Shown here piece after piece: positions 4,864 to 40,190 of a DNA stretch of 45,604 nucleotides; position 1 is the first letter of the stretch; every line of letters starts with the position of its first letter. Location: assembly GCF_003334335.1 (NCBI RefSeq), contig NZ_QOWQ01000036.1. One strand, written 5' to 3'. A model generated the notes under the pieces. The model saw only the letters and a list, made by a program, of their open reading frames with translations, had not been told where the DNA came from and searched no databases. Made by a program: the position numbers and the translations under genes. The DNA is from Escherichia coli. GTDB taxonomy: Bacteria > Pseudomonadota > Gammaproteobacteria > Enterobacterales > Enterobacteriaceae.

Positions 4864-5292
4864 TTAGATAGGCTGCGTCATTAAACCAACCGATTTCACA
4901 CCCGCACTATGTAACAAGTTCAGTGCTTTAATTATTTCATCGTAAGGCACATCTTTTGCGCCACCGATCAGAAAGACCGTTTTCGGGTTGGCCTTGAAAC
5001 GGCTGGACACTTCCGCCACCACCTGCTCTGGTGGTAAACGCTCCAGGCGATCTTTCTCAACCACCACGGTGTACTGACCAATACCAGACACTTCAACAAT
5101 CACTGGCGGATTATCGTTACTGCTCACCGCCTGTGATTCAGTAGCGTCTGGCAGATCGACCTCCACGCTCTGGGTGATGATGGGCGCTGTCGCCATAAAG
5201 ATCAGCAACAGCACCAGCAGTACGTCCAGCAACGGTACAATGTTGATTTCGGACTTGAGATCGCGACGACCTCGTCCACGCGCTCTGGCCAT
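4864..5292 (-). CDS. tolR: Tol-Pal system protein TolR
   Basis: 142 aa, ExbD/TolR family, single N-terminal TM segment. Confidence 0.95.
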   Translation of the reverse strand: MARARGRGRRDLKSEINIVPLLDVLLVLLLIFMATAPIITQSVEVDLPDATESQAVSSNDNPPVIVEVSGIGQYTVVVEKDRLERLPPEQVVAEVSSRFKANPKTVFLIGGAKDVPYDEIIKALNLLHSAGVKSVGLMTQPI

Positions 5293-5295
5293 GGC

Positions 5296-6389
<1,094 letters not shown>

Positions 6390-8114: not shown

Positions 8115-9683
8115 TTAGCGTGCCGGCTGAGTAGTCGTGGAAGACTGCTCAAAGTGATAGCGACCGGTTTTCAGGCTGCTTGGGCCGAGGCGTGCAAACT
8201 TGAACATTAAGAACAATTCTGCCACCAGGAACAGGGTATACAGGCCGCAAATCAGCACCATTGAGAAGATGAGATCGCCTGCGGTCAGTGACGAGTTCGC
8301 CACAGCTGTCGGCAGCACTTCACCGATAGCCCACGGTTGGCGGCCATATTCAGCCACGAACCAGCCCGCTTCTACAGCAATCCACGGCAGCGGAATACCG
8401 TACAGCGCGGCGCGCAGAAGCCATTTTTTCTCGCCAATGCGGTTGCGGATGACACTCCAGAAAGAGAGCGCGATGATTGCCAGAAGCAGGAAGCCACACG
8501 CCACCATGATACGGAACGCAAAGTACAGCGGCGCTACACGCGGGATGGAGTCTTTGGTTGCCTGTTGAATCTGCGCTTCAGTCGCATCAGCCACGTTTGG
8601 CGTATAGCGTTTCAGCAGCAGACCGTAACCGAGGTCTTTCTTCATGCTATTGAACTGGTCACGAACCGCCTGGTCGGTAGAACCAGAACGCAGTTGTTCG
8701 AGCAGAGAGTACGCCTTCATCCCGTTACGAATGCGTTCTTCATGCTGCACCATCAGCTCTTTCAGGCCGATAACCGGGGTATCCACGGAACGCGTTGCAA
8801 TGATGCCCAGTGCGTAAGGGATCTGAATCGCAAATTTGTTCGTCTCCTCTTCCTGATCAGGAATGCCGAACAGAGTAAAGGCAGCAGGCGCAGGTTGCGT
8901 TTCCCACTCGGCTTCAATAGCAGCCAGTTTGGTTTTCTGCACGTCGCCCATTTCGTAGCCGGATTCATCACCCAGAACAATAACAGACAGAACAGCAGCC
9001 ATACCGAAGCTGGCAGCGATAGCAAAGGAGCGTTTAGCGAAGGCGAAGTCACGACCTTTCAGCATATACCATGCGCTGATACCGAGGATGAACATCGCGC
9101 CAGTCACATAACCAGACGCTACAGTGTGAACGAATTTCACCTGAGCAACCGGGTTAAGCACCAGCTCGGAGAAGCTCACCATCTCCATACGCATAGTTTC
9201 AAAGTTGAAATCGGACGCGATTGGGTTTTGCATCCAGCCGTTCGCAACCAGAATCCACAGTGCGGACAGGTTTGAACCGAGCGCCACCAGCCAGGTGACA
9301 CACATATGCTGAACTTTACCCAGACGATCCCAACCGAAGAAGAACAGACCTACAAAGGTGGATTCGAGGAAGAAGGCCATCAGACCTTCGATTGCCAGCG
9401 GCGCACCGAAGATATCCCCTACATAGTGGGAATAGTAAGACCAGTTAGTCCCGAACTGGAACTCCATGGTCAGACCGGTAGCCACACCCAGAGCGAAGTT
9501 GATACCAAACAACTTGCCCCAGAACTTGGTCATATCTTTATAAATCTGTTTGCCGGAGAGGACGTAGACCGTTTCCATAATGGCCAGCAGGAACGCCATA
9601 CCGAGCGTCAGTGGCACAAAAAGGAAGTGGTACATCGCGGTCAAGGCAAACTGTAAGCGCGACAGTTCGACTATATCTAACAT
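8115..9683 (-). CDS. cydA: Cytochrome bd-I ubiquinol oxidase subunit I
   Basis: ORF starts [13 protein letters not shown]...; second Met taken as start (522 aa). Confidence 0.95.
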
Positions 9684-9686
9684 CAT

Positions 9687-10300
9687 GACTCCTTGCTCAT
9701 CGCATGAAGACTCCGAGAGTGAACCCCGTTAGAAAGGGTCACACGCATGCCCCAATAGAAATTTGTTTGAACACTTTCATCATACCATGTGAATGCACAC
9801 AAAAACGGCGTAAAGAAAGGTTGCAAACATGTTAATAAAAACTCAAATTGATCCCACGTATATATTACGCCGCAAAATCCTTACAATAAACAGGTTTTTG
9901 TTGAAGCAAATTTGCATTTTTCGACGGTGATCAATTTATAGCTAAATTACCGCCTTTCAGCCAATTTGATCGAGAACAATTTATCTCTTTTTGATGCCCA
10001 TTTCCAAGACTTATACATTGATAAATATCAATTCCTACAAATTATGTTAATCATGTTTCAATAAGGTAACTTTAGTGACATTTATGTTTAAAATGTGTGA
10101 GTTATAAGGCTGAAATTAGTTTCGGTTGGCAATTAAAGATAAAAAGAGACGAAGCAAAAACAGCACGGTTGACCTTAATTCTTTTTTTGGTCACTGGCTA
10201 ATACGACGCAGAGTTTCAGGATTACTAATAAAGGCATAAATCCACCCCGCCAATATTAACATTTAGTTAACTTATAATTATATTATAATTAACTCACCCA
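9687..10300 (-). promoter_or_regulatory. cydA upstream control region (long AT-rich leader/promoter zone)
   Basis: ~600 bp AT-rich non-coding DNA upstream of cydA with TTGAT-containing and TGTTAA-type motifs; cydAB is known to be controlled by ArcA/FNR/H-NS. Individual sites not mapped. Confidence 0.5.
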
Positions 10301-10431
10301 GGGTTATTATTTTGTTAAAAATAAAGCCACATATACGTGGCTTGAGAGTGAAGATAAACGCAAAATTACCTGATGCGCTACGCTTGCCAGTGTCTACATC
10401 ATCTCTGCAATATATTGAATTTGCCTGCTTT

Positions 10432-10467
10432 TGTAGACCGAATAAAGCGTTCATGCCGTATCCGGCA
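10432..10467. repeat. REP-like palindromic element (degenerate)
   Basis: tgtagaccgaataaagcgttcatgccgtatccggca resembles the REP consensus; lies just 3' of mngB. Confidence 0.55.
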
Positions 10468-10529
10468 TGAACAAAGCGCCCTTTGTCAACAATCTGGCCG
10501 CGCATATGTGGCTTCGGTTTGATTGCTAT

Positions 10530-13163
10530 TCAGGCAAGCCGGTAACTGAACGTCCGTGACTGGCCGGGTAAAAAAGGCCCCGATAGATTTGAACCTTGAT
10601 TTTCCTCGGTGGTAATGTGTTCATCCATCATCGTTTCTGAGCAAGAAATCACCTCGCGACTGAAAGCAACAGTCGCATCACAGGTTGCTGATTCAGCCGG
10701 ATTAAACAGCCGTAAAATCACTTCTTGTCGGTCTTCAGCTTTCTTAAGTGCGCTTATCAGGCATCCCACTGGGGGCATTTTCAACAAACTATAACTTTCC
10801 GGCACGTTGAATCCGGCTTTGTTGAGCTTCATCACATCCCATGGGATTTTGTTGTAACACTGTACTGGAGTCAGCCATGCTCGCGCCTGCTGAGCTACAC
10901 CAGCGGCGGTTGGCGTACCGGTATAACTCAATAAACTTAGGCGACAAGAAAGCAGACCACGTAGTTGTGAGTCCGGGACTGGCATTTTAATTCCCGAAGG
11001 CCGCCCAGGCCTTAAAAGCAGATCTTCTTTGCCCAGTAAGCCCACGCCACGCAGCAACGTAATGGCAAAGGTTTTCTTCTCTTCACCGATGACTTCAAAT
11101 TCACGTAACCCTTCGCTAAAGACAGCCATGCCGTTACGCCCTTCCTGTAAGGCAACATAGTTGAGCATATTCCATACCGGAACCGGCGCTTCTTTCCAGC
11201 CTTCTTGCTGCCAGTTGTTCATTGCACTGTCGTTCACGGGGCGCGTTAGCGAACCAAACTGCGTATCTGCCAGAACACTGTCGGTGTTAAAAGGTGTAGG
11301 GACCAGGACACGAAGGCGATGATCGTCAGCCTGGTTATCAAGATTGATATCCACATCAATACGCCTGCTGTTATGACTAAGAGTGACAACCAACACCACC
11401 CCTACTCTGCCAGTGGATTGCCGGGCGCTGCGTTCTGACAAATTGAGCGGCACTGCCATGTCATAGCGGATAACAGCCCTGCTCTGCCAGGCTTCATGAA
11501 TAATATCGCATTGCGGTTTCGCGTTCGCTGCGGTAATTACCCACTCTTCTTTTGCGGGTGAATAGTCATATTCATCACCATCATCAGAGCTTTCTTCAAT
11601 TTGCAATACCCGGTCATAGCGCACACCGCTGTCTTTATCTACCAGTTGCAGAGAACCATCCTCATTGAGCGCAATTTGCCAGAAAGCATTTTCCAGTATC
11701 CCTTCAGCGTCACTTTTTGCCGCAATTACGTTGCCAGGCTGATTCGCTTCGATATAAAGCGTGCGATAGCCCATAGAAGGGACAATCTGGTTGATCTGTA
11801 TATCAAACTCCATAAAGGGATCGTAATTACCGTAATGAACTATTTGCCGATCGATTAGGCCTGGATCGATCTCACGGGCATGGCGAATAAAATACGGTAC
11901 AGGCTGACCGCGATCGTCCCGCAAATTAAACTGGCTGGCGCGCAGCCGCACAGTGGTGTTGATAACTTCTTCACGCGGCCAGGGCATCAGGTTAAACAGG
12001 ACGAGTTTGTCGGCGTCGCTCTGCGGCATGTTGTCGGCAATTTTGCGCATGTAGAAACGAATCAGATTATCCGCCATGTCTTCAGCCAGTTCGAAGCGGG
12101 CGACGATTTCGCGATGAACTTTGTCACTACAGCAGCAGCCGATACTGTCGTGGGCATGATTTTTTAAGATCTCTTTCCACATTTTCTCCAGCAAGCCGTG
12201 GTGGTATTCAAAACCCAACGTCCAGGCCAGTGTTGCCAGCGGTTCCAGCAGATTAACAATCTTATTTTCAATACGCGCGTGGGCAATTTTGATATCCATA
12301 CGCGTAGAACCGATGGTGCGATGCACGCGCATATATTTGCCATCAATAAATTCCCCTTTCAGGGTTGCCAGATTATCTCGCTGCGCTTCGATCTTCTCAA
12401 ATACCTCTTCAAAGCGGCTCATCACAAACTTACGTTGAGGGTAGATCTCACGTAGCTTATCCATCACTTCGAAGATATTTTGCTGCAATGGCATCTGGTC
12501 ATGCCCATTCGGCAGCAAAATCTCTTTGGTTACAGACGCTTTTTCCAGCACGTCAAAATAACTGTCGAGGCGTTTACGTAATCCGTTTTCGTCGGCAGGT
12601 AAGTACTTACCGATGGCGTAGCCCAGCGGCAGCACCTGCGCCGTCACTTCGCTACCGTCACTGCTTTGCCACAAAAACTCGGTTTTATCAGTACCGTGGC
12701 GCTCCGAACATCCGCGCCAGAACATGGTGCGGGTAATGCCAAATCCATTGTAGATATGCGGCAGTTGCCCGGACATGCCAAAGGAATCTGGTAAATAACC
12801 TATTTTCATCGGCTCGCCAAACGCGAGGCAGTCACGCATTCCGTACATCAGATTACGGACGATGGATTCCGCAGAAACAATCGTGGTATCGGTCTGGGTA
12901 TACCAGGGGCCGATAATCAACTTGCCGGCTTCTACCTGTTTCTTCACACGGTCTTTGTTTTCCGGTTTCACCGCGAAATAATCTTCGAGGATCGCCGTTT
13001 GCCCGTCGAGTACGTAATATTTGTATTCGTTGTCCTGTTCCAGTCGGCACAGGATCTCTTCCATATTATTGACCAGCAGAATACGTGACTCTTCGGTGGT
13101 GAAATACCACTCTCGATCCCAGTGCATATGCGGGGTGATGTGAACGCGAGATACTGCTTTCAT
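10530..13163 (-). CDS. mngB: Alpha-mannosidase / mannosylglycerate hydrolase (GH38)
   Basis: 877-aa ORF following mngA on the same strand. Confidence 0.92.
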
Positions 13164-16091: not shown

Positions 16092-16961
16092 TTATTTCAG
16101 AACAGTTTTCAGTGCTTCACCGATATCCGCCAGGCTGCGAACGGTTTTCACGCCTGCGGCTTCCAGAGCAGCGAATTTCTCATCCGCAGTCCCTTTCCCA
16201 CCGGCAATGATGGCACCCGCGTGGCCCATACGTTTGCCTTTCGGCGCAGTCACACCAGCGATGTAACCCACAACTGGCTTGGTAACGTGCTCTTTGATGT
16301 ACGCAGCTGCTTCTTCTTCAGCGCTACCGCCGATCTCACCGATCATCACGATCGCTTCGGTCTGCGGATCTTTTTCGAACATTTCGAGAATGTCGATAAA
16401 GTTAGAGCCCGGGATCGGGTCACCGCCGATACCGACACAGGTCGACTGACCGAAACCGTAATCCGTGGTCTGTTTAACCGCTTCATAGGTCAGTGTACCG
16501 GAACGGGAAACGATACCCACTTTACCCGGTTTGTGAATGTGACCAGGCTGGATACCGATTTTGCATTCACCCGGAGTGATAACGCCTGGGCAGTTCGGGC
16601 CGATCATACGAACGCCTGCTTCATCCAGCTTCACTTTCACGGTCAGCATATCCAGCGTCGGGATGCCTTCAGTGATGGTGATAATCAGTTTGATGCCTGC
16701 GTCGATGGCTTCCAGAATGGAGTCTTTGCAGAACGGTGCTGGTACGTAGATAACAGAAGCGGTAGCGCCAGTGGCAGCAACGGCTTCACGCACGGTGTTG
16801 AACACCGGCAGGCCGAGGTGGGTGGTGCCGCCTTTACCTGGGGTTACGCCGCCAACCATTTTAGTGCCGTATGCAATGGCCTGTTCTGAGTGGAAAGTCC
16901 CCTGGCTACCGGTAAAGCCCTGGCAGATAACCTTGGTGTTTTTATCGATTAAAATGGACAT
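16092..16961 (-). CDS. sucD: Succinyl-CoA synthetase alpha subunit
   Basis: 289 aa; CoA-binding and catalytic-His region recognisable. Confidence 0.96.
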
Positions 16962-18127
16962 TATTTCCCCTCCACTGCGGCAACAACCTGCTGAGCTGCA
17001 TCCGTCAGACCTTTTGCTGCAATAATATTCAGGCCGCTGTCAGCCAGTTTCTTCGCGCCGAGTTCGGCGTTGTTACCTTCCAGACGTACCACGACCGGTA
17101 CGTTAACACCCACTTCTGCTACCGCGCCGATGATACCGTCAGCGATCAGGTCGCAACGAACGATACCGCCGAAGATGTTAACCAGAACGGCTTTCACTTT
17201 GTCGTCAGAGAGGATGATTTTGAACGCTTCGGTTACACGTTCTTTGGTTGCGCCGCCGCCAACGTCAAGGAAGTTAGCCGGTTCGCCGCCGTGCAGTTTA
17301 ACGATGTCCATCGTACCCATCGCCAGACCTGCGCCGTTAACCATACAACCGATGTTACCGTCCAGCGCAACGTAGTTCAGTTCCCACTGTGCAGCCTGTG
17401 CTTCACGCGGATCTTCCTGCGACTGGTCACGCATTTCGCGCAGATCAGGCTGGCGGAACAGTGCGTTGCCGTCAGCGCCCAGTTTGCCGTCGAGGCAAAT
17501 CAGATCGCCCTGTTTGGTGATGACCAGCGGGTTGATTTCGATCAACGCCAGGTCGCGCTCCAGGAAAATGGTCGCCAGGCCCATGAAGATTTTGGTGAAC
17601 TGCTGAACCAGTTTACCTTCCAGACCCAGTTTGAACGCCAGCTCGCGTCCCTGATACGGCATCGGGCCAGTCAGCGGATCAAGCGCAACTTTATGGATCA
17701 GGTGCGGAGTTTCTTCCGCCACTTTTTCGATTTCCACGCCGCCTTCGGTGGAGGCCATAAAGACCACACGACGGGAACTACGGTCAACAACGGCACCGAG
17801 ATACAGCTCTTTAGCGATATCGGTCGCTGCTTCAACCAGAATCTGGTTAACCGGTTGGCCATTGGCATCTGTTTGATACGTTACCAGACGCTTGCCCAGC
17901 CAGTTTTCTGCAAAAGCACGGATGTCTTCTTTGCTGTTTACAACTTTCACACCGCCCGCTTTACCGCGGCCACCAGCGTGAACCTGACATTTCACTACCC
18001 ACGGACCGGCACCGATTTTTGAAGCGGCTTCTTCTGCTTCGCGCGGAGTAGTACAGGCATAACCCACCGGTGCTGGTAAGCCATAGCGGGCAAAAAGTTG
18101 TTTTGCCTGATATTCATGTAAGTTCAT
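16961..18127 (-). CDS. sucC: Succinyl-CoA synthetase beta subunit
   Basis: 388 aa, ATP-grasp family; stop overlaps sucD start by 1 nt. Confidence 0.96.
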
Positions 18128-22613: not shown

Positions 22614-22733
22614 CGCCTGATGCGCTGCGCTTATCAGGCCTACGGGTAATGACTTGTAGGCCGGATAAGGCGTTCACGCCGCATCCGGCACTGGTTGCCT
22701 GATGCGACGCTTGCGCGTCTTATCAGGCCTACG
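22614..22733. repeat. REP cluster between sdhB and sucA
   Basis: Three REP-consensus copies in alternating orientation ending 2 nt before the sdhB stop. Confidence 0.8.
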
Positions 22734-25964: not shown

Positions 25965-26672
25965 GAATAACGCCCACATGCTGTTCTTATTATTCCCTGG
26001 GGACTACGGGCACAGAGGTTAACTTTCTGTTACCTGGAGACGTCGGGATTTCCTTCCTCCGGTCTGCTTGCGGGTCAGACAGCGTCCTTTCTATAACTGC
26101 GCGTCATGCAAAACACTGCTTCCAGATGCGAAAACGACACGTTACAACGCTGGGTGGCTCGGGATTGCAGGGTGTTCCGGAGACCTGGCGGCAGTATAGG
26201 CTGTTCACAAAATCATTACAATTAACCTACATATAGTTTGTCGGGTTTTATCCTGAACAGTGATCCAGGTCACGATAACAACATTTATTTAATTTTTAAT
26301 CATCTAATTTGACAATCATTCAACAAAGTTGTTACAAACATTACCAGGAAAAGCATATAATGCGTAAAAGTTATGAAGTCGGTATTTCACCTAAGATTAA
26401 CTTATGTAACAGTGTGGAAGTATTGACCAATTCATTCGGGACAGTTATTAGTGGTAGACAAGTTTAATAATTCGGATTGCTAAGTACTTGATTCGCCATT
26501 TATTCGTCATCAATGGATCCTTTACCTGCAAGCGCCCAGAGCTCTGTACCCAGGTTTTCCCCTCTTTCACAGAGCGGCGAGCCAAATAAAAAACGGGTAA
26601 AGCCAGGTTGATGTGCGAAGGCAAATTTAAGTTCCGGCAGTCTTACGCAATAAGGCGCTAAGGAGACCTTAA
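25965..26672. promoter_or_regulatory. Divergent gltA / sdhCDAB promoter and leader region
   Basis: 708-bp non-coding region between divergently oriented gltA and sdhC; this region is known to carry catabolite/ArcA-regulated promoters and the sRNA-targeted sdhC leader. Individual sites not mapped. Confidence 0.6.
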
Positions 26673-40080: not shown

Positions 40081-40190
40081 TGCCTGATGCGACGCTTGAC
40101 GCGTCTTATCAGGCCTACGTATTTCCTGCAATTTATTGAATTTGCACAAATTTGTAGGCTGGATAAGGCGTTCACGCCGCATCCGGCATC
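40081..40190. repeat. REP pair between dtpD and phr
   Basis: Two inverted REP-consensus copies (gcctgatgcgacgc... / ...gccgcatccggc). Confidence 0.8.

Follow-up and report, generated by a model that had tools for sequence, protein, structure and literature searches.

The gene-free gap between cydA and mngB (9684-10529, 846 bp) in the analysed window, by which we mean the whole stretch of 45,604 nt, corresponds to the spacer between mngB and cydA in E. coli K-12, the well-studied oxygen-control region of cydAB, and it almost certainly comprises the cydAB control region and leader joined to the 3' end of mngAB, both of which are known. As a regulatory region the gap is already known and ordinary, and because it is a textbook example this main finding brings nothing new to the biology. 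It can serve as a positive control, since the initial annotation had correctly inferred from sequence alone that several promoters under oxygen control and a REP element are present. The gap DNA is 100% identical to that of K-12 strains and its counterpart in MG1655 (770612-771457) carries no annotation; in the literature it appears as an "847 bp spacer" with several RpoD-holoenzyme peaks and H-NS (PMC3946193). A comparison with the K-12 cydAB regulatory DNA shows agreement in locus, FNR boxes, ArcA clusters, H-NS, multiple promoters and spacer length and no difference, apart from the hairpins of the leader and the two forms within the species, both described below and unmentioned in the literature consulted.

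Unless noted otherwise, the features described here lie on the minus strand of the window. The proximal boundary of the gap is the cydA start codon at 9681-9683, the second ATG of an ATGATG and the annotated RefSeq start of a protein of 522 aa. Among 80 loci it is the only conserved one of the two, most genera having AAGATG instead. The distal boundary is the mngB stop codon at 10530-10532. With this extent the gap ranks second-longest among about 41 spaces between long ORFs in the window, so that the initial annotation was right to call it long, but its 843 bp were counted from the non-conserved upstream ATG and 846 bp result from the conserved one. It had also been described as AT-rich, which is borne out by a G+C content of 36.6% (0.366) against 50.5% (0.505) for the window. 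Over 9801-10323 the value drops to 0.31-0.32, an AT-rich tract as expected of H-NS-bound regulatory DNA.

On this reading the stretch from 9684 to about 10290 is the control region and leader of cydABX-ybgE. According to PMC3037301 five cydAB promoters have been reported, P1-P4 being controlled by oxygen, ArcA and FNR and P5 contributing aerobically, and several RpoD peaks are known (PMC3946193), in line with the multiple promoters that had been proposed from the sequence. The promoter-regulatory region itself was the subject of Cotter et al. 1997 and Govantes et al. 2000, both as cited in PMC3037301, PMC3688515, PMC3798270 and PMC3946193. A cydA transcription start supported by 21 reads and giving a 172-nt 5' UTR was described by Kim et al. 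2012 (PMC3415461), whose genome-wide table holds a single cydA entry. The published upstream sequence matches the window exactly and places this -172 start at 9855. The corresponding proximal promoter (9855-9890) has the -10 hexamer TAATAT at 9862-9867 and the -35 hexamer TTTATT at 9885-9890, separated by a spacer of 17 bp, and 6 nt lie between the -10 hexamer and the start, as in a sigma-70 promoter. Both hexamers are nearly invariant throughout the Enterobacteriaceae. From the published position of -53.5 for the distal FNR box we infer a P1 start at about 9971 (about -288), so that among P1-P5 the placement at -172 comes from data and that at about -288 is derived. A simple promoter scan was uninformative here because its 3 sites are no more than the 3.3 found in shuffles. 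A sigma-54 site listed for mngB/cydA was rejected as it lies inside mngB, 1484 bp from cydA, and the PdhR SELEX box assigned to 'mngB>cydA' (TAAAGATATGACCAAGT) is located by its sequence in cydA coding DNA at about 9524-9540 and thus outside the gap; the authors of the SELEX study found PdhR to be without effect on cydAB.

Two FNR boxes are present in the control region. FNR box 1 at 10018-10031 (TTGATATTTATCAA) has the perfect consensus, its palindrome TTGATaaatATCAA showing no mismatch to TTGAT-N4-ATCAA, and is backed by motif, ChIP-seq and conservation. FNR box 2 at 9966-9979 (TTGTTCTCGATCAA on the cydA strand) has one mismatch, sits 52 bp from box 1 and overlaps the putative P1 start at about 9971. 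The composite pattern occurs six times in the whole 45.6-kb window with 1.9 matches expected. An FNR ChIP-seq peak has been published for cydA (PMC3688515), where the site is given at -53.5 and the operon counts among those directly repressed, and the summit at 770,404 (U00096.2) converts to about 9960 of the window. In a comparison set of 79-80 Enterobacterales and Vibrio cydA loci, 68 of 79 carry an FNR box with at most one mismatch at -450 to -200 (controls 0/79 and 0/77), the conserved position being about 350 nt 5' of the cydA ATG. In 17 of the 79 loci this box is followed, about 52 bp further downstream, by another one with at most one mismatch.

For ArcA, three ChIP-seq regions at cydA have been described which agree with earlier footprints (PMC3798270), and we placed the sites from the supplement of Park et al. 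2013 (U00096.2) on the window by sequence. Region cydA1 (10253-10283) has the best site score and the strongest of the three peaks; it holds the perfect ArcA-type repeat GTTAACTAAATGTTAA, with GTTAA-N6-GTTAA at 10256-10271, in agreement with the (T)GTTAA direct repeats spaced by about 11 bp from centre to centre that mark ArcA targets. Region cydA2 (10053-10104) corresponds to the predicted site 770260-770311 (U00096.2) under its ChIP-seq peak, and its cores ACATGATTAACATAA and TTTAAACATAAATGT are kept across genera. The same is true for TTAACA and TTTGYAAC of cydA3 (9808-9838), where the predicted site GCGTAAAGAAAGGTTGCAAACATGTTAATAA (770526-770556, U00096.2) also lies under a peak. In the whole window the ArcA repeat pattern gives 14 matches with 2.5 expected, and none of 100 shuffles reaches 14. 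The TTGAT- and TGTTAA-type motifs that the initial annotation had pointed out are therefore present and, as composite FNR and ArcA sites, far from chance, but their bare counts (7 copies of TTGAT, P about 0.06, and 4 of TGTTAA, P about 0.03, against composition-matched shuffles of the gap) are only marginally above it. H-NS is bound in the spacer and ArcA is described as an anti-repressor of H-NS at cydAB (PMC3946193, PMC3798270).

Taken as a whole, oxygen-responsive control by ArcA, FNR and H-NS holds, the published ChIP-seq regions mapping onto motifs of the window (PMC3798270, PMC3688515, PMC3946193). With published promoters and regulator occupancy, the region differs from a single proximal start free of regulators, the observation that the initial annotation had named as speaking against its reading. 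In the proposed model several sigma-70 promoters would lie within the AT-rich, H-NS-bound stretch. FNR at the -53.5 box and at the second box over the P1 start would repress without oxygen, and phospho-ArcA on the three direct-repeat clusters would raise expression, chiefly by displacing H-NS, so that cydAB expression would peak in microaerobic conditions. The same window contains a second long spacer of respiratory and TCA genes with several close ArcA ChIP-seq regions, namely gltA-sdhC (25980-26672, 693 bp), where our pattern search found ArcA-type repeats at 26018-26034 and 26386-26401. In contrast to the cydA gap, which is co-directional and 3' of mngB and where ArcA activates by anti-repression, it holds divergent promoters and ArcA represses.

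Downstream of the proximal promoter the cydA leader contains two hairpins with covariation and a ribosome-binding block that hardly varies, all of them apparently undescribed. The block at 9681-9716 (UCGGAGUCUUCAUGCGAUGAGCAAGGAGUCAUGAUG, with the SD AAGGAG at 9689-9694) and the first cydA codons account for nearly all of the 22 invariant columns in an alignment of 37 sequences that range from E. coli to Proteus and Arsenophonus. RNAalifold pairs GUCUUC (9706-9711) with the SD region; all of these pairs are invariant, so that covariation has no bearing on this predicted fold, and as a single sequence the block folds in an ordinary manner (z = -0.8). Hairpin B (9719-9742, -59 to -36 from the ATG) consists of GUGACCC, a loop and GGGGUUCAC, and folds of individual sequences place a hairpin here with many differing stem sequences. 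In the CM-fitted alignment A5 of 64 distinct sequences 85.8% of the cells are paired (33-51% in slid controls) and all eight of the eight pairs show compensatory changes; the hairpin statistics lean partly on this structure-fitted alignment, and in the unfitted MAFFT alignment the value for hairpin B is weaker at 74.3%, with one subgroup off by one register.

The hairpin A domain (9765-9827) is composed of an outer helix (9820-9827 with 9765-9772) and an inner stem-loop (9774-9819). It is a sequence-variable patch of the leader with a poorly conserved primary sequence, the two E. coli haplotypes being only 50% identical here, and still the leaders of K-12, O157 and most of the other Enterobacteriaceae examined fold into a long hairpin that CUUUC/GRAAG closes. 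Among 25 leaders, 16 gave z <= -1.2 and in two the hairpin was not formed. On a plain MAFFT alignment RNAalifold found 13 pairs, ten of them with compensatory changes, and 88.8% of the cells are paired, with 42-62% in slid controls. The frequent G-U pairs in the leader hairpins fit RNA of the cydA-sense strand. As the whole-leader fold is no more stable than shuffles (z = -0.45), the support for leader structure comes from covariation and not from energy. Rfam 15, searched at a permissive threshold over 9400-10800, gave no gathering-level match, the leader hairpins included, and a literature search on the cydA UTR, stem-loops and Hfq returned nothing relevant.

From these sequence data we infer that the hairpins and the block may influence how stable the mRNA is or how accessible its ribosome-binding site. 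That the cydA leader is an undescribed cis-acting RNA element, in which hairpins A and B and the block of about 35 nt, maybe folding on the SD, add post-transcriptional control of cytochrome bd-I, is a tentative proposal which we would call possible and not yet probable. The ompA leader is an example of stabilising stem-loops in a 5' UTR. The cydA leader resembles it in being long and in having maintained hairpins 5' of the ribosome-binding site, a parallel that would concern a possible mode of action and not membership of one family. Binding of CsrA at the GGA-rich ribosome-binding block was considered and not adopted, as the integrated E. coli table is against it: in the supplement table of Potts et al. 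2017 cydA is given as 'No' in all four Yes/No columns, which were taken as the binding columns, and with unchanged translation efficiency and stability. In Salmonella cydA expression is CsrA-dependent and direct binding is not reported there.

Across the comparison set a long AT-rich gap 5' of cydA is kept whatever the upstream gene, with a median of 701 bp and a range of 412-1668 bp, and two blocks, -400 to -135 and -72 to -1, are conserved across genera. Within E. coli the region exists in two divergent forms which are apparently undescribed. In about 41% of the complete E. coli genomes the proximal control region is about 20% divergent and lacks the strongest ArcA site of K-12; the distal 470 bp of the gap have no homologue in these genomes and can therefore not be essential for cydAB control. 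No counterpart of cydA1 was found in the O157 and UM146 forms of the gap. This raises the question whether the distal half (about 10105-10529) consists mainly of filler, left as a scar by the insertion of mngRAB between sucD and cydA, with regulation confined to the proximal ~400 bp. The usual gene upstream of cydA in other genera is indeed sucD, in E. coli genomes that carry other inserts the shared part is limited to the proximal ~370 bp, conservation across genera ends at about -420 and the distal stretch contains a decayed repeat, a BIME and a terminator. However, the ArcA ChIP-seq peak that is stronger than the other two and a perfect direct repeat lie within it at 10253-10283, ArcA-type sites similar to cydA1 (GTTAAT...AAAATGT) occur in those genera where mngB also precedes cydA, and SELEX shows several RpoD peaks over the spacer (PMC3946193), and the filler reading is unlikely.

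Beyond about 10290 the control region would give way to the 3' end of mngAB, which up to 10529 is proposed to read, in the direction of transcription, as a decayed terminator-like copy, a degenerate BIME-1 and a working intrinsic terminator. The terminator at 10317-10343 is predicted by terminator scan and fold as a hairpin (AAGCCACGUAUAUGUGGCUU) followed by UAUUUUU, the features of an intrinsic terminator, with -10.3 kcal/mol and z = -3.8 against shuffles. In other genera a G+C-rich hairpin and a T run also lie directly 3' of mngB. A segment of 33 nt containing this terminator (10311-10343) has a decayed second copy at 10482-10514 (no strand assigned) with 73% identity, which folds no better than shuffles (z = -0.3). 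Both copies flank the BIME-1 and are listed as direct repeat D1 and inverted pair I2.

The BIME-1 itself (10368-10473, RIB/RIP type, no strand assigned) is built from a REP at 10368-10397, an L linker at 10398-10432 and an inverted REP at 10433-10473. Such elements, consisting of a REP, an L linker with an IHF site and an inverted REP, are known from transcription units, where they lie at the 3' end (Boccard and Prentki 1993; Ton-Hoang et al. 2012, PMC3333891). The element in the gap is like them in its two inverted REPs, the long L linker, its single copy and the position just past a stop codon, and it differs from canonical copies in the decay of both REPs. It is complete, and its alignment with a canonical BIME-1 of the same window (about 40090-40190) covers the full length, but the left REP has lost most of its palindrome through a deletion of 7 nt and stem-breaking substitutions. 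Both REPs are present in inverse orientation and both are degenerate, so that the degenerate REP noticed at the mngB end is real and is part of this complete, decayed element. The linker motif TGCAATATATTGAATTTGC, a predicted IHF-site motif, shows a single difference over 19 bases to the canonical copy (40127-40145) and occurs twice in the window with 0.04 occurrences expected. The linker would thus be of the IHF type, IHF binding as well as terminator activity being putative. All 5426 E. coli genomes have elements of the BIME-1 family, at between 18 and more than 40 places each. The hits of the permissive Rfam search were all at chance level, and the best of them, ES036 with 21.9 bits against a threshold of 37.6 bits, falls on the BIME-1 linker.

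The initial annotation had also considered a short peptide or an sRNA, and for such a hidden gene we find no support in Rfam, NCBIfam, the uORF frame or the sORF survey. An unannotated small protein gene, be it an ORF of 75 codons, a uORF of 21 codons or another short ORF, is very improbable. The 75-codon ORF (10278-10505) is called a hypothetical protein (WP_001324497.1) by PGAP in some RefSeq genomes, but it is unannotated in MG1655 and other genomes with 100% identical DNA, about 60% of it overlies the BIME-1 and it is probably not a gene. None of ten ORFs of 30-75 aa on both strands, the 75-aa ORF included, matched NCBIfam at E <= 1. The uORF (9683-9748) has an ATG start, conserved surroundings and a TGA stop over the cydA start (ATGA), which would allow translational coupling. 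However, it is intact in Escherichia, Citrobacter and Superficieibacter only, and elsewhere its frame is broken by indels within the hairpin B loop, which leave only MSKES. As the frame is lost while nucleotides and hairpin are kept, conservation acts at the level of RNA or DNA and not of the peptide; the leader peptide was therefore rejected and the uORF is probably incidental. The possibly incomplete supplement file of the ribosome-profiling sORF survey of Stringer et al. has no entry for the gap region. An independent trans-acting sRNA is more improbable still: the length of the gap, promoter-like hexamers and the strong terminator-like hairpin at 10317-10343 would suit one, but there is no gathering-level Rfam match and the sole weak one is the BIME-1 linker, orientation and position of the terminator suit the end of mngAB, a promoter-like site occurs upstream of it on the same strand once only, within the BIME-1, so that all BIME-1 copies would have it, 10105-10529 is missing from about 41% of the E. 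coli genomes and from other genera, and a literature search returned no link between cydA and RIL-seq sRNA data.

In summary, the gap is best read as the known cydAB control region and leader joined to the mngAB 3' end, in which the leader of the mRNA for a major respiratory oxidase carries covarying structures and an ultra-conserved block outside the curated RNA families. If the leader does form a cis-acting element, it would supplement the control by ArcA, FNR and H-NS through the stability of the mRNA, access of the ribosome or a factor that binds there. The responses to oxygen could then vary between strains with the E. coli form, the two forms differing in the sequence of hairpin A and in the distal ArcA site, and the difference between the O157-like and the K-12 form could matter for the tuning of cytochrome bd by pathogens in the low-oxygen gut.

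The window is K-12-like E. coli DNA in the orientation opposite to MG1655, and cydA (RefSeq start at 9683) and mngB (stop codon at 10530-10532), both on the minus strand, flank a gap at 9684-10529, corresponding to MG1655 770612-771457. The initial annotation had described it as a long AT-rich non-coding region of 843 bp, a length counted from the upstream, non-conserved ATG of an ATGATG pair; only the second ATG, which is also the RefSeq start, is conserved in 80 related loci, and the gap therefore measures 846 bp. The rest of that description was confirmed, as the gap is free of genes, ranks second in length among the spaces separating long ORFs in the window and has a G+C content of 0.366 vs 0.505 for the window, with a minimum of 0.31-0.32 across 9801-10323.

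In order to place published data on the window, positions were converted by the 777-bp offset between two MG1655 coordinate versions, which was checked at the cydA start, and the converted regulator and transcription start coordinates coincide with motifs found in the gap. The three ArcA ChIP-seq regions upstream of cydA reported by Park et al. 2013 (PMC3798270) have predicted sites, all on the minus strand, at 10253-10283 (region cydA1, which is stronger than the other two), 10053-10104 (region cydA2) and 9808-9838 (region cydA3); as summarised in the same paper, ArcA activates cydAB by relieving repression by H-NS. Myers et al. 2013 (PMC3688515) found an FNR ChIP-seq peak with a site at -53.5 and classed cydAB as directly repressed. 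The summit converts to about window 9960, and from the -53.5 placement we infer that the distal start P1 lies near 9971, over the second of two FNR boxes (9966-9979). The cydA start mapped by Kim et al. 2012 (PMC3415461) 172 nt upstream of the ATG lies at 9855, as their 51-nt upstream sequence matches exactly, and is preceded on the minus strand by the -10 hexamer TAATAT (9862-9867) and the -35 hexamer TTTATT (9885-9890) with a spacing of 17 bp. For this spacer, given as 847 bp, Shimada et al. 2014 (PMC3946193) describe several peaks of RpoD holoenzyme, the presence of H-NS and five cydAB promoters already known; according to a secondary source (PMC3037301), P1-P4 are under oxygen, ArcA and FNR control and P5 contributes aerobically. 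The gap is already known and ranks among the most thoroughly studied E. coli regulatory regions, and the proposal of multiple promoters and oxygen-responsive regulation of cydAB was correct, given the five published promoters, the FNR peak, the three ArcA regions and H-NS.

The motif argument originally offered for this proposal needs to be modified. Bare TTGAT (seven copies) and TGTTAA (four copies) are only marginally enriched in the gap (P about 0.06 and 0.03, respectively, in dinucleotide-preserving shuffles of the gap itself) and are therefore weak evidence on their own, while the composite sites go beyond chance. FNR box 1, TTGATaaatATCAA at 10018-10031, is a perfect FNR palindrome, box 2 lies 52 bp from it and has one mismatch, and GTTAACTAAATGTTAA at 10256-10271 is a perfect ArcA-type direct repeat, a pattern with 14 matches in the whole window vs 2.5 expected, a number reached by no shuffle. 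Another perfect FNR palindrome, TTGATTTCGATCAA, is present at 17532-17545 within the long coding ORF 16961-18127 on the minus strand, probably sucC as judged from gene order. Between the mapped -172 start and the inferred P1 start we also noted a perfect 10-bp palindrome, GCAAATTTGC (9906-9915, minus strand), and a third FNR-like half-site, AAATTGATCAC (within 9921-9937, minus strand), both strongly conserved among genera. The segment GCTGAAAGGCGGTA at 9948-9961 resembles a Cra half-site, and Shimada et al. 2014 (PMC3946193) cite an interaction between Cra and FNR at cydAB.

To see how far these features are shared we compared, in 80 species of Enterobacterales and Vibrio, cydA together with the 2.5 kb that precede it. 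The gap upstream of cydA is usually long (median 701 bp, range 412-1668 bp), its G+C content is at most 0.42 with the exception of three loci, and the neighbouring gene is mostly sucD, sometimes a mngB homologue, and ruvB in Vibrio. An FNR box with at most one mismatch lies between -450 and -200, counted from the cydA ATG, in 68 of 79 loci, and control stretches of equal size, taken within cydA or farther upstream, contain none; in 17 loci of this set it is followed about 52 bp downstream by a second box. Among 26 Enterobacteriaceae sequences, -400 to -135 and -72 to -1 are strongly conserved, and the two FNR boxes, the hexamers of the -172 promoter and the cores of ArcA regions 2 and 3 all fall within these blocks; the sequence from -130 to -75 is not conserved. 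As the long AT-rich gap and the FNR box recur among related species, the comparison identifies the spacer as an old, maintained feature of cydA that is not peculiar to this genome.

Downstream of the mngB stop codon follow a decayed hairpin-like segment (10482-10514), a 106-bp element (10368-10473) and a clean hairpin with UAUUUUU (10317-10343, minus strand). This hairpin is probably the mngAB terminator; 199 of 200 shuffled sequences fold less well (z = -3.8). The "degenerate REP" noted at this end can be refined to a decayed BIME-1, since the 106-bp element can be aligned along its entire length with a canonical copy (REP, linker, inverted REP) at about 40090-40190, and the linker TGCAATATATTGAATTTGC is common to both; in the decayed element the left REP lacks 7 nt and both stems carry substitutions. 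By sequence it is a BIME-1 as defined by Ton-Hoang et al. (PMC3333891), a single copy with a long conserved L linker bearing an IHF site, here predicted, and its family occupies 18 to more than 40 places in each of the 5426 complete E. coli genomes. A consensus REP is also present at 22656-22689, between the sdh and suc genes according to gene order. The constitutive promoter proposed for the spacer by Shimada et al. 2014 (PMC3946193), TCTACA-17-TATATT, is located inside the BIME-1 (10409-10437, minus strand) and takes its -35 from the REP head and its -10 from the L linker; therefore the same hexamers would occur at other BIME-1 copies. A 33-nt direct repeat (10311-10343 and 10482-10514, 73% identical) with a terminator-type hairpin in each copy brackets the BIME-1, and its mngB-proximal copy is decayed; it looks as if the terminator segment was duplicated upon arrival of the element.

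Nothing supports a hidden gene in the gap, where a short peptide or sRNA had been considered. Rfam gave no match near any gathering score, NCBIfam none for ten ORFs of 30-75 codons, and the supplement of a ribosome-profiling sORF survey, possibly incomplete, has no entry for the gap. A 75-aa "hypothetical protein" called by PGAP in some genomes is absent from MG1655 and others with identical DNA and lies mostly on the BIME-1, and is probably not a gene. A 21-codon uORF (9683-9748, minus strand), whose TGA overlaps the cydA start in ATGATG, was rejected as a peptide gene: only Escherichia, Citrobacter and Superficieibacter retain its frame, and elsewhere indels in a hairpin loop break it while the surrounding nucleotides are still conserved.

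The uORF analysis led to this hairpin, B (9719-9742, -59 to -36, minus strand), whose stem sequence differs by genus with the fold retained. Using a covariance model built from 24 sequences, 69 matches were aligned. The resulting alignment is structure-fitted and has 85.8% of its cells paired vs 33-51% with partners slid, and compensatory changes at all eight pairs; a plain MAFFT alignment gave 74.3%, and there the +1 control is inflated by one subgroup that is shifted by a single column. The longer hairpin A (9765-9827, minus strand) is the sequence-variable leader patch and folds in K-12, O157 and most other Enterobacteriaceae leaders examined (z at most -1.2 in 16 of 25, not formed in two). 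RNAalifold on an unfitted alignment showed compensatory changes at 10 of its 13 pairs; 88.8% of cells are paired vs 42-62% in slid controls, and its many G-U pairs fit with the cydA-sense strand. From these patterns we regard both hairpins as real structures maintained across Enterobacterales; no Rfam family covers either, and our best guess is that they stabilise the mRNA or insulate the ribosome-binding site against the long leader. The last ~35 nt before the ATG (9681-9716, minus strand) show hardly any variation from E. coli through to Proteus and Arsenophonus, a degree of conservation far above the needs of a Shine-Dalgarno sequence. GUCUUC could pair with the Shine-Dalgarno region in a sequestering hairpin, whose pairs are all invariant and whose modelled fold energy is unremarkable. 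A Salmonella study suggests a role of CsrA for cydA, which the E. coli table of Potts et al. 2017 does not support: all four Yes/No columns for cydA, taken as binding columns, read "No". Both hairpins and the ribosome-binding block seem to be undescribed so far.

Within E. coli the control region exists in two forms. The whole K-12-type gap is found at at least 99% identity in 3172 of 5426 complete genomes, and in about 2245 the match is limited to the proximal ~370 bp, with an identity of ~80%. In strain LR-31 (NZ_AP027520.1) an IS1A is inserted in the gap, and the match falls into two pieces spanning 1620 bp. We compared window 9684-10060 with positions 4998-5373 of the O157:H7 (L002) and UM146 (L003) loci, in which the gap adjoins a methylaspartate-mutase cluster and a TPR protein next to sucD, respectively. 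All three share one CydA protein accession, and the final 72 nt of the leader do not differ between the forms; hairpin A, at 50% identity, still folds in both, and the two promoter cores (~76% identical) are no more alike than those of K-12 and Citrobacter. Homology stops just upstream of FNR box 1. In the O157:H7 and UM146 forms, ArcA-type repeats are retained where regions 2 and 3 lie in K-12, and the distal consensus ArcA site at 10253-10283, the strongest in K-12, has no counterpart. Two modest leads emerge, namely the leader hairpins and the occurrence of the control region in two forms, and the missing distal site suggests possible strain differences in the ArcA control of cytochrome bd.
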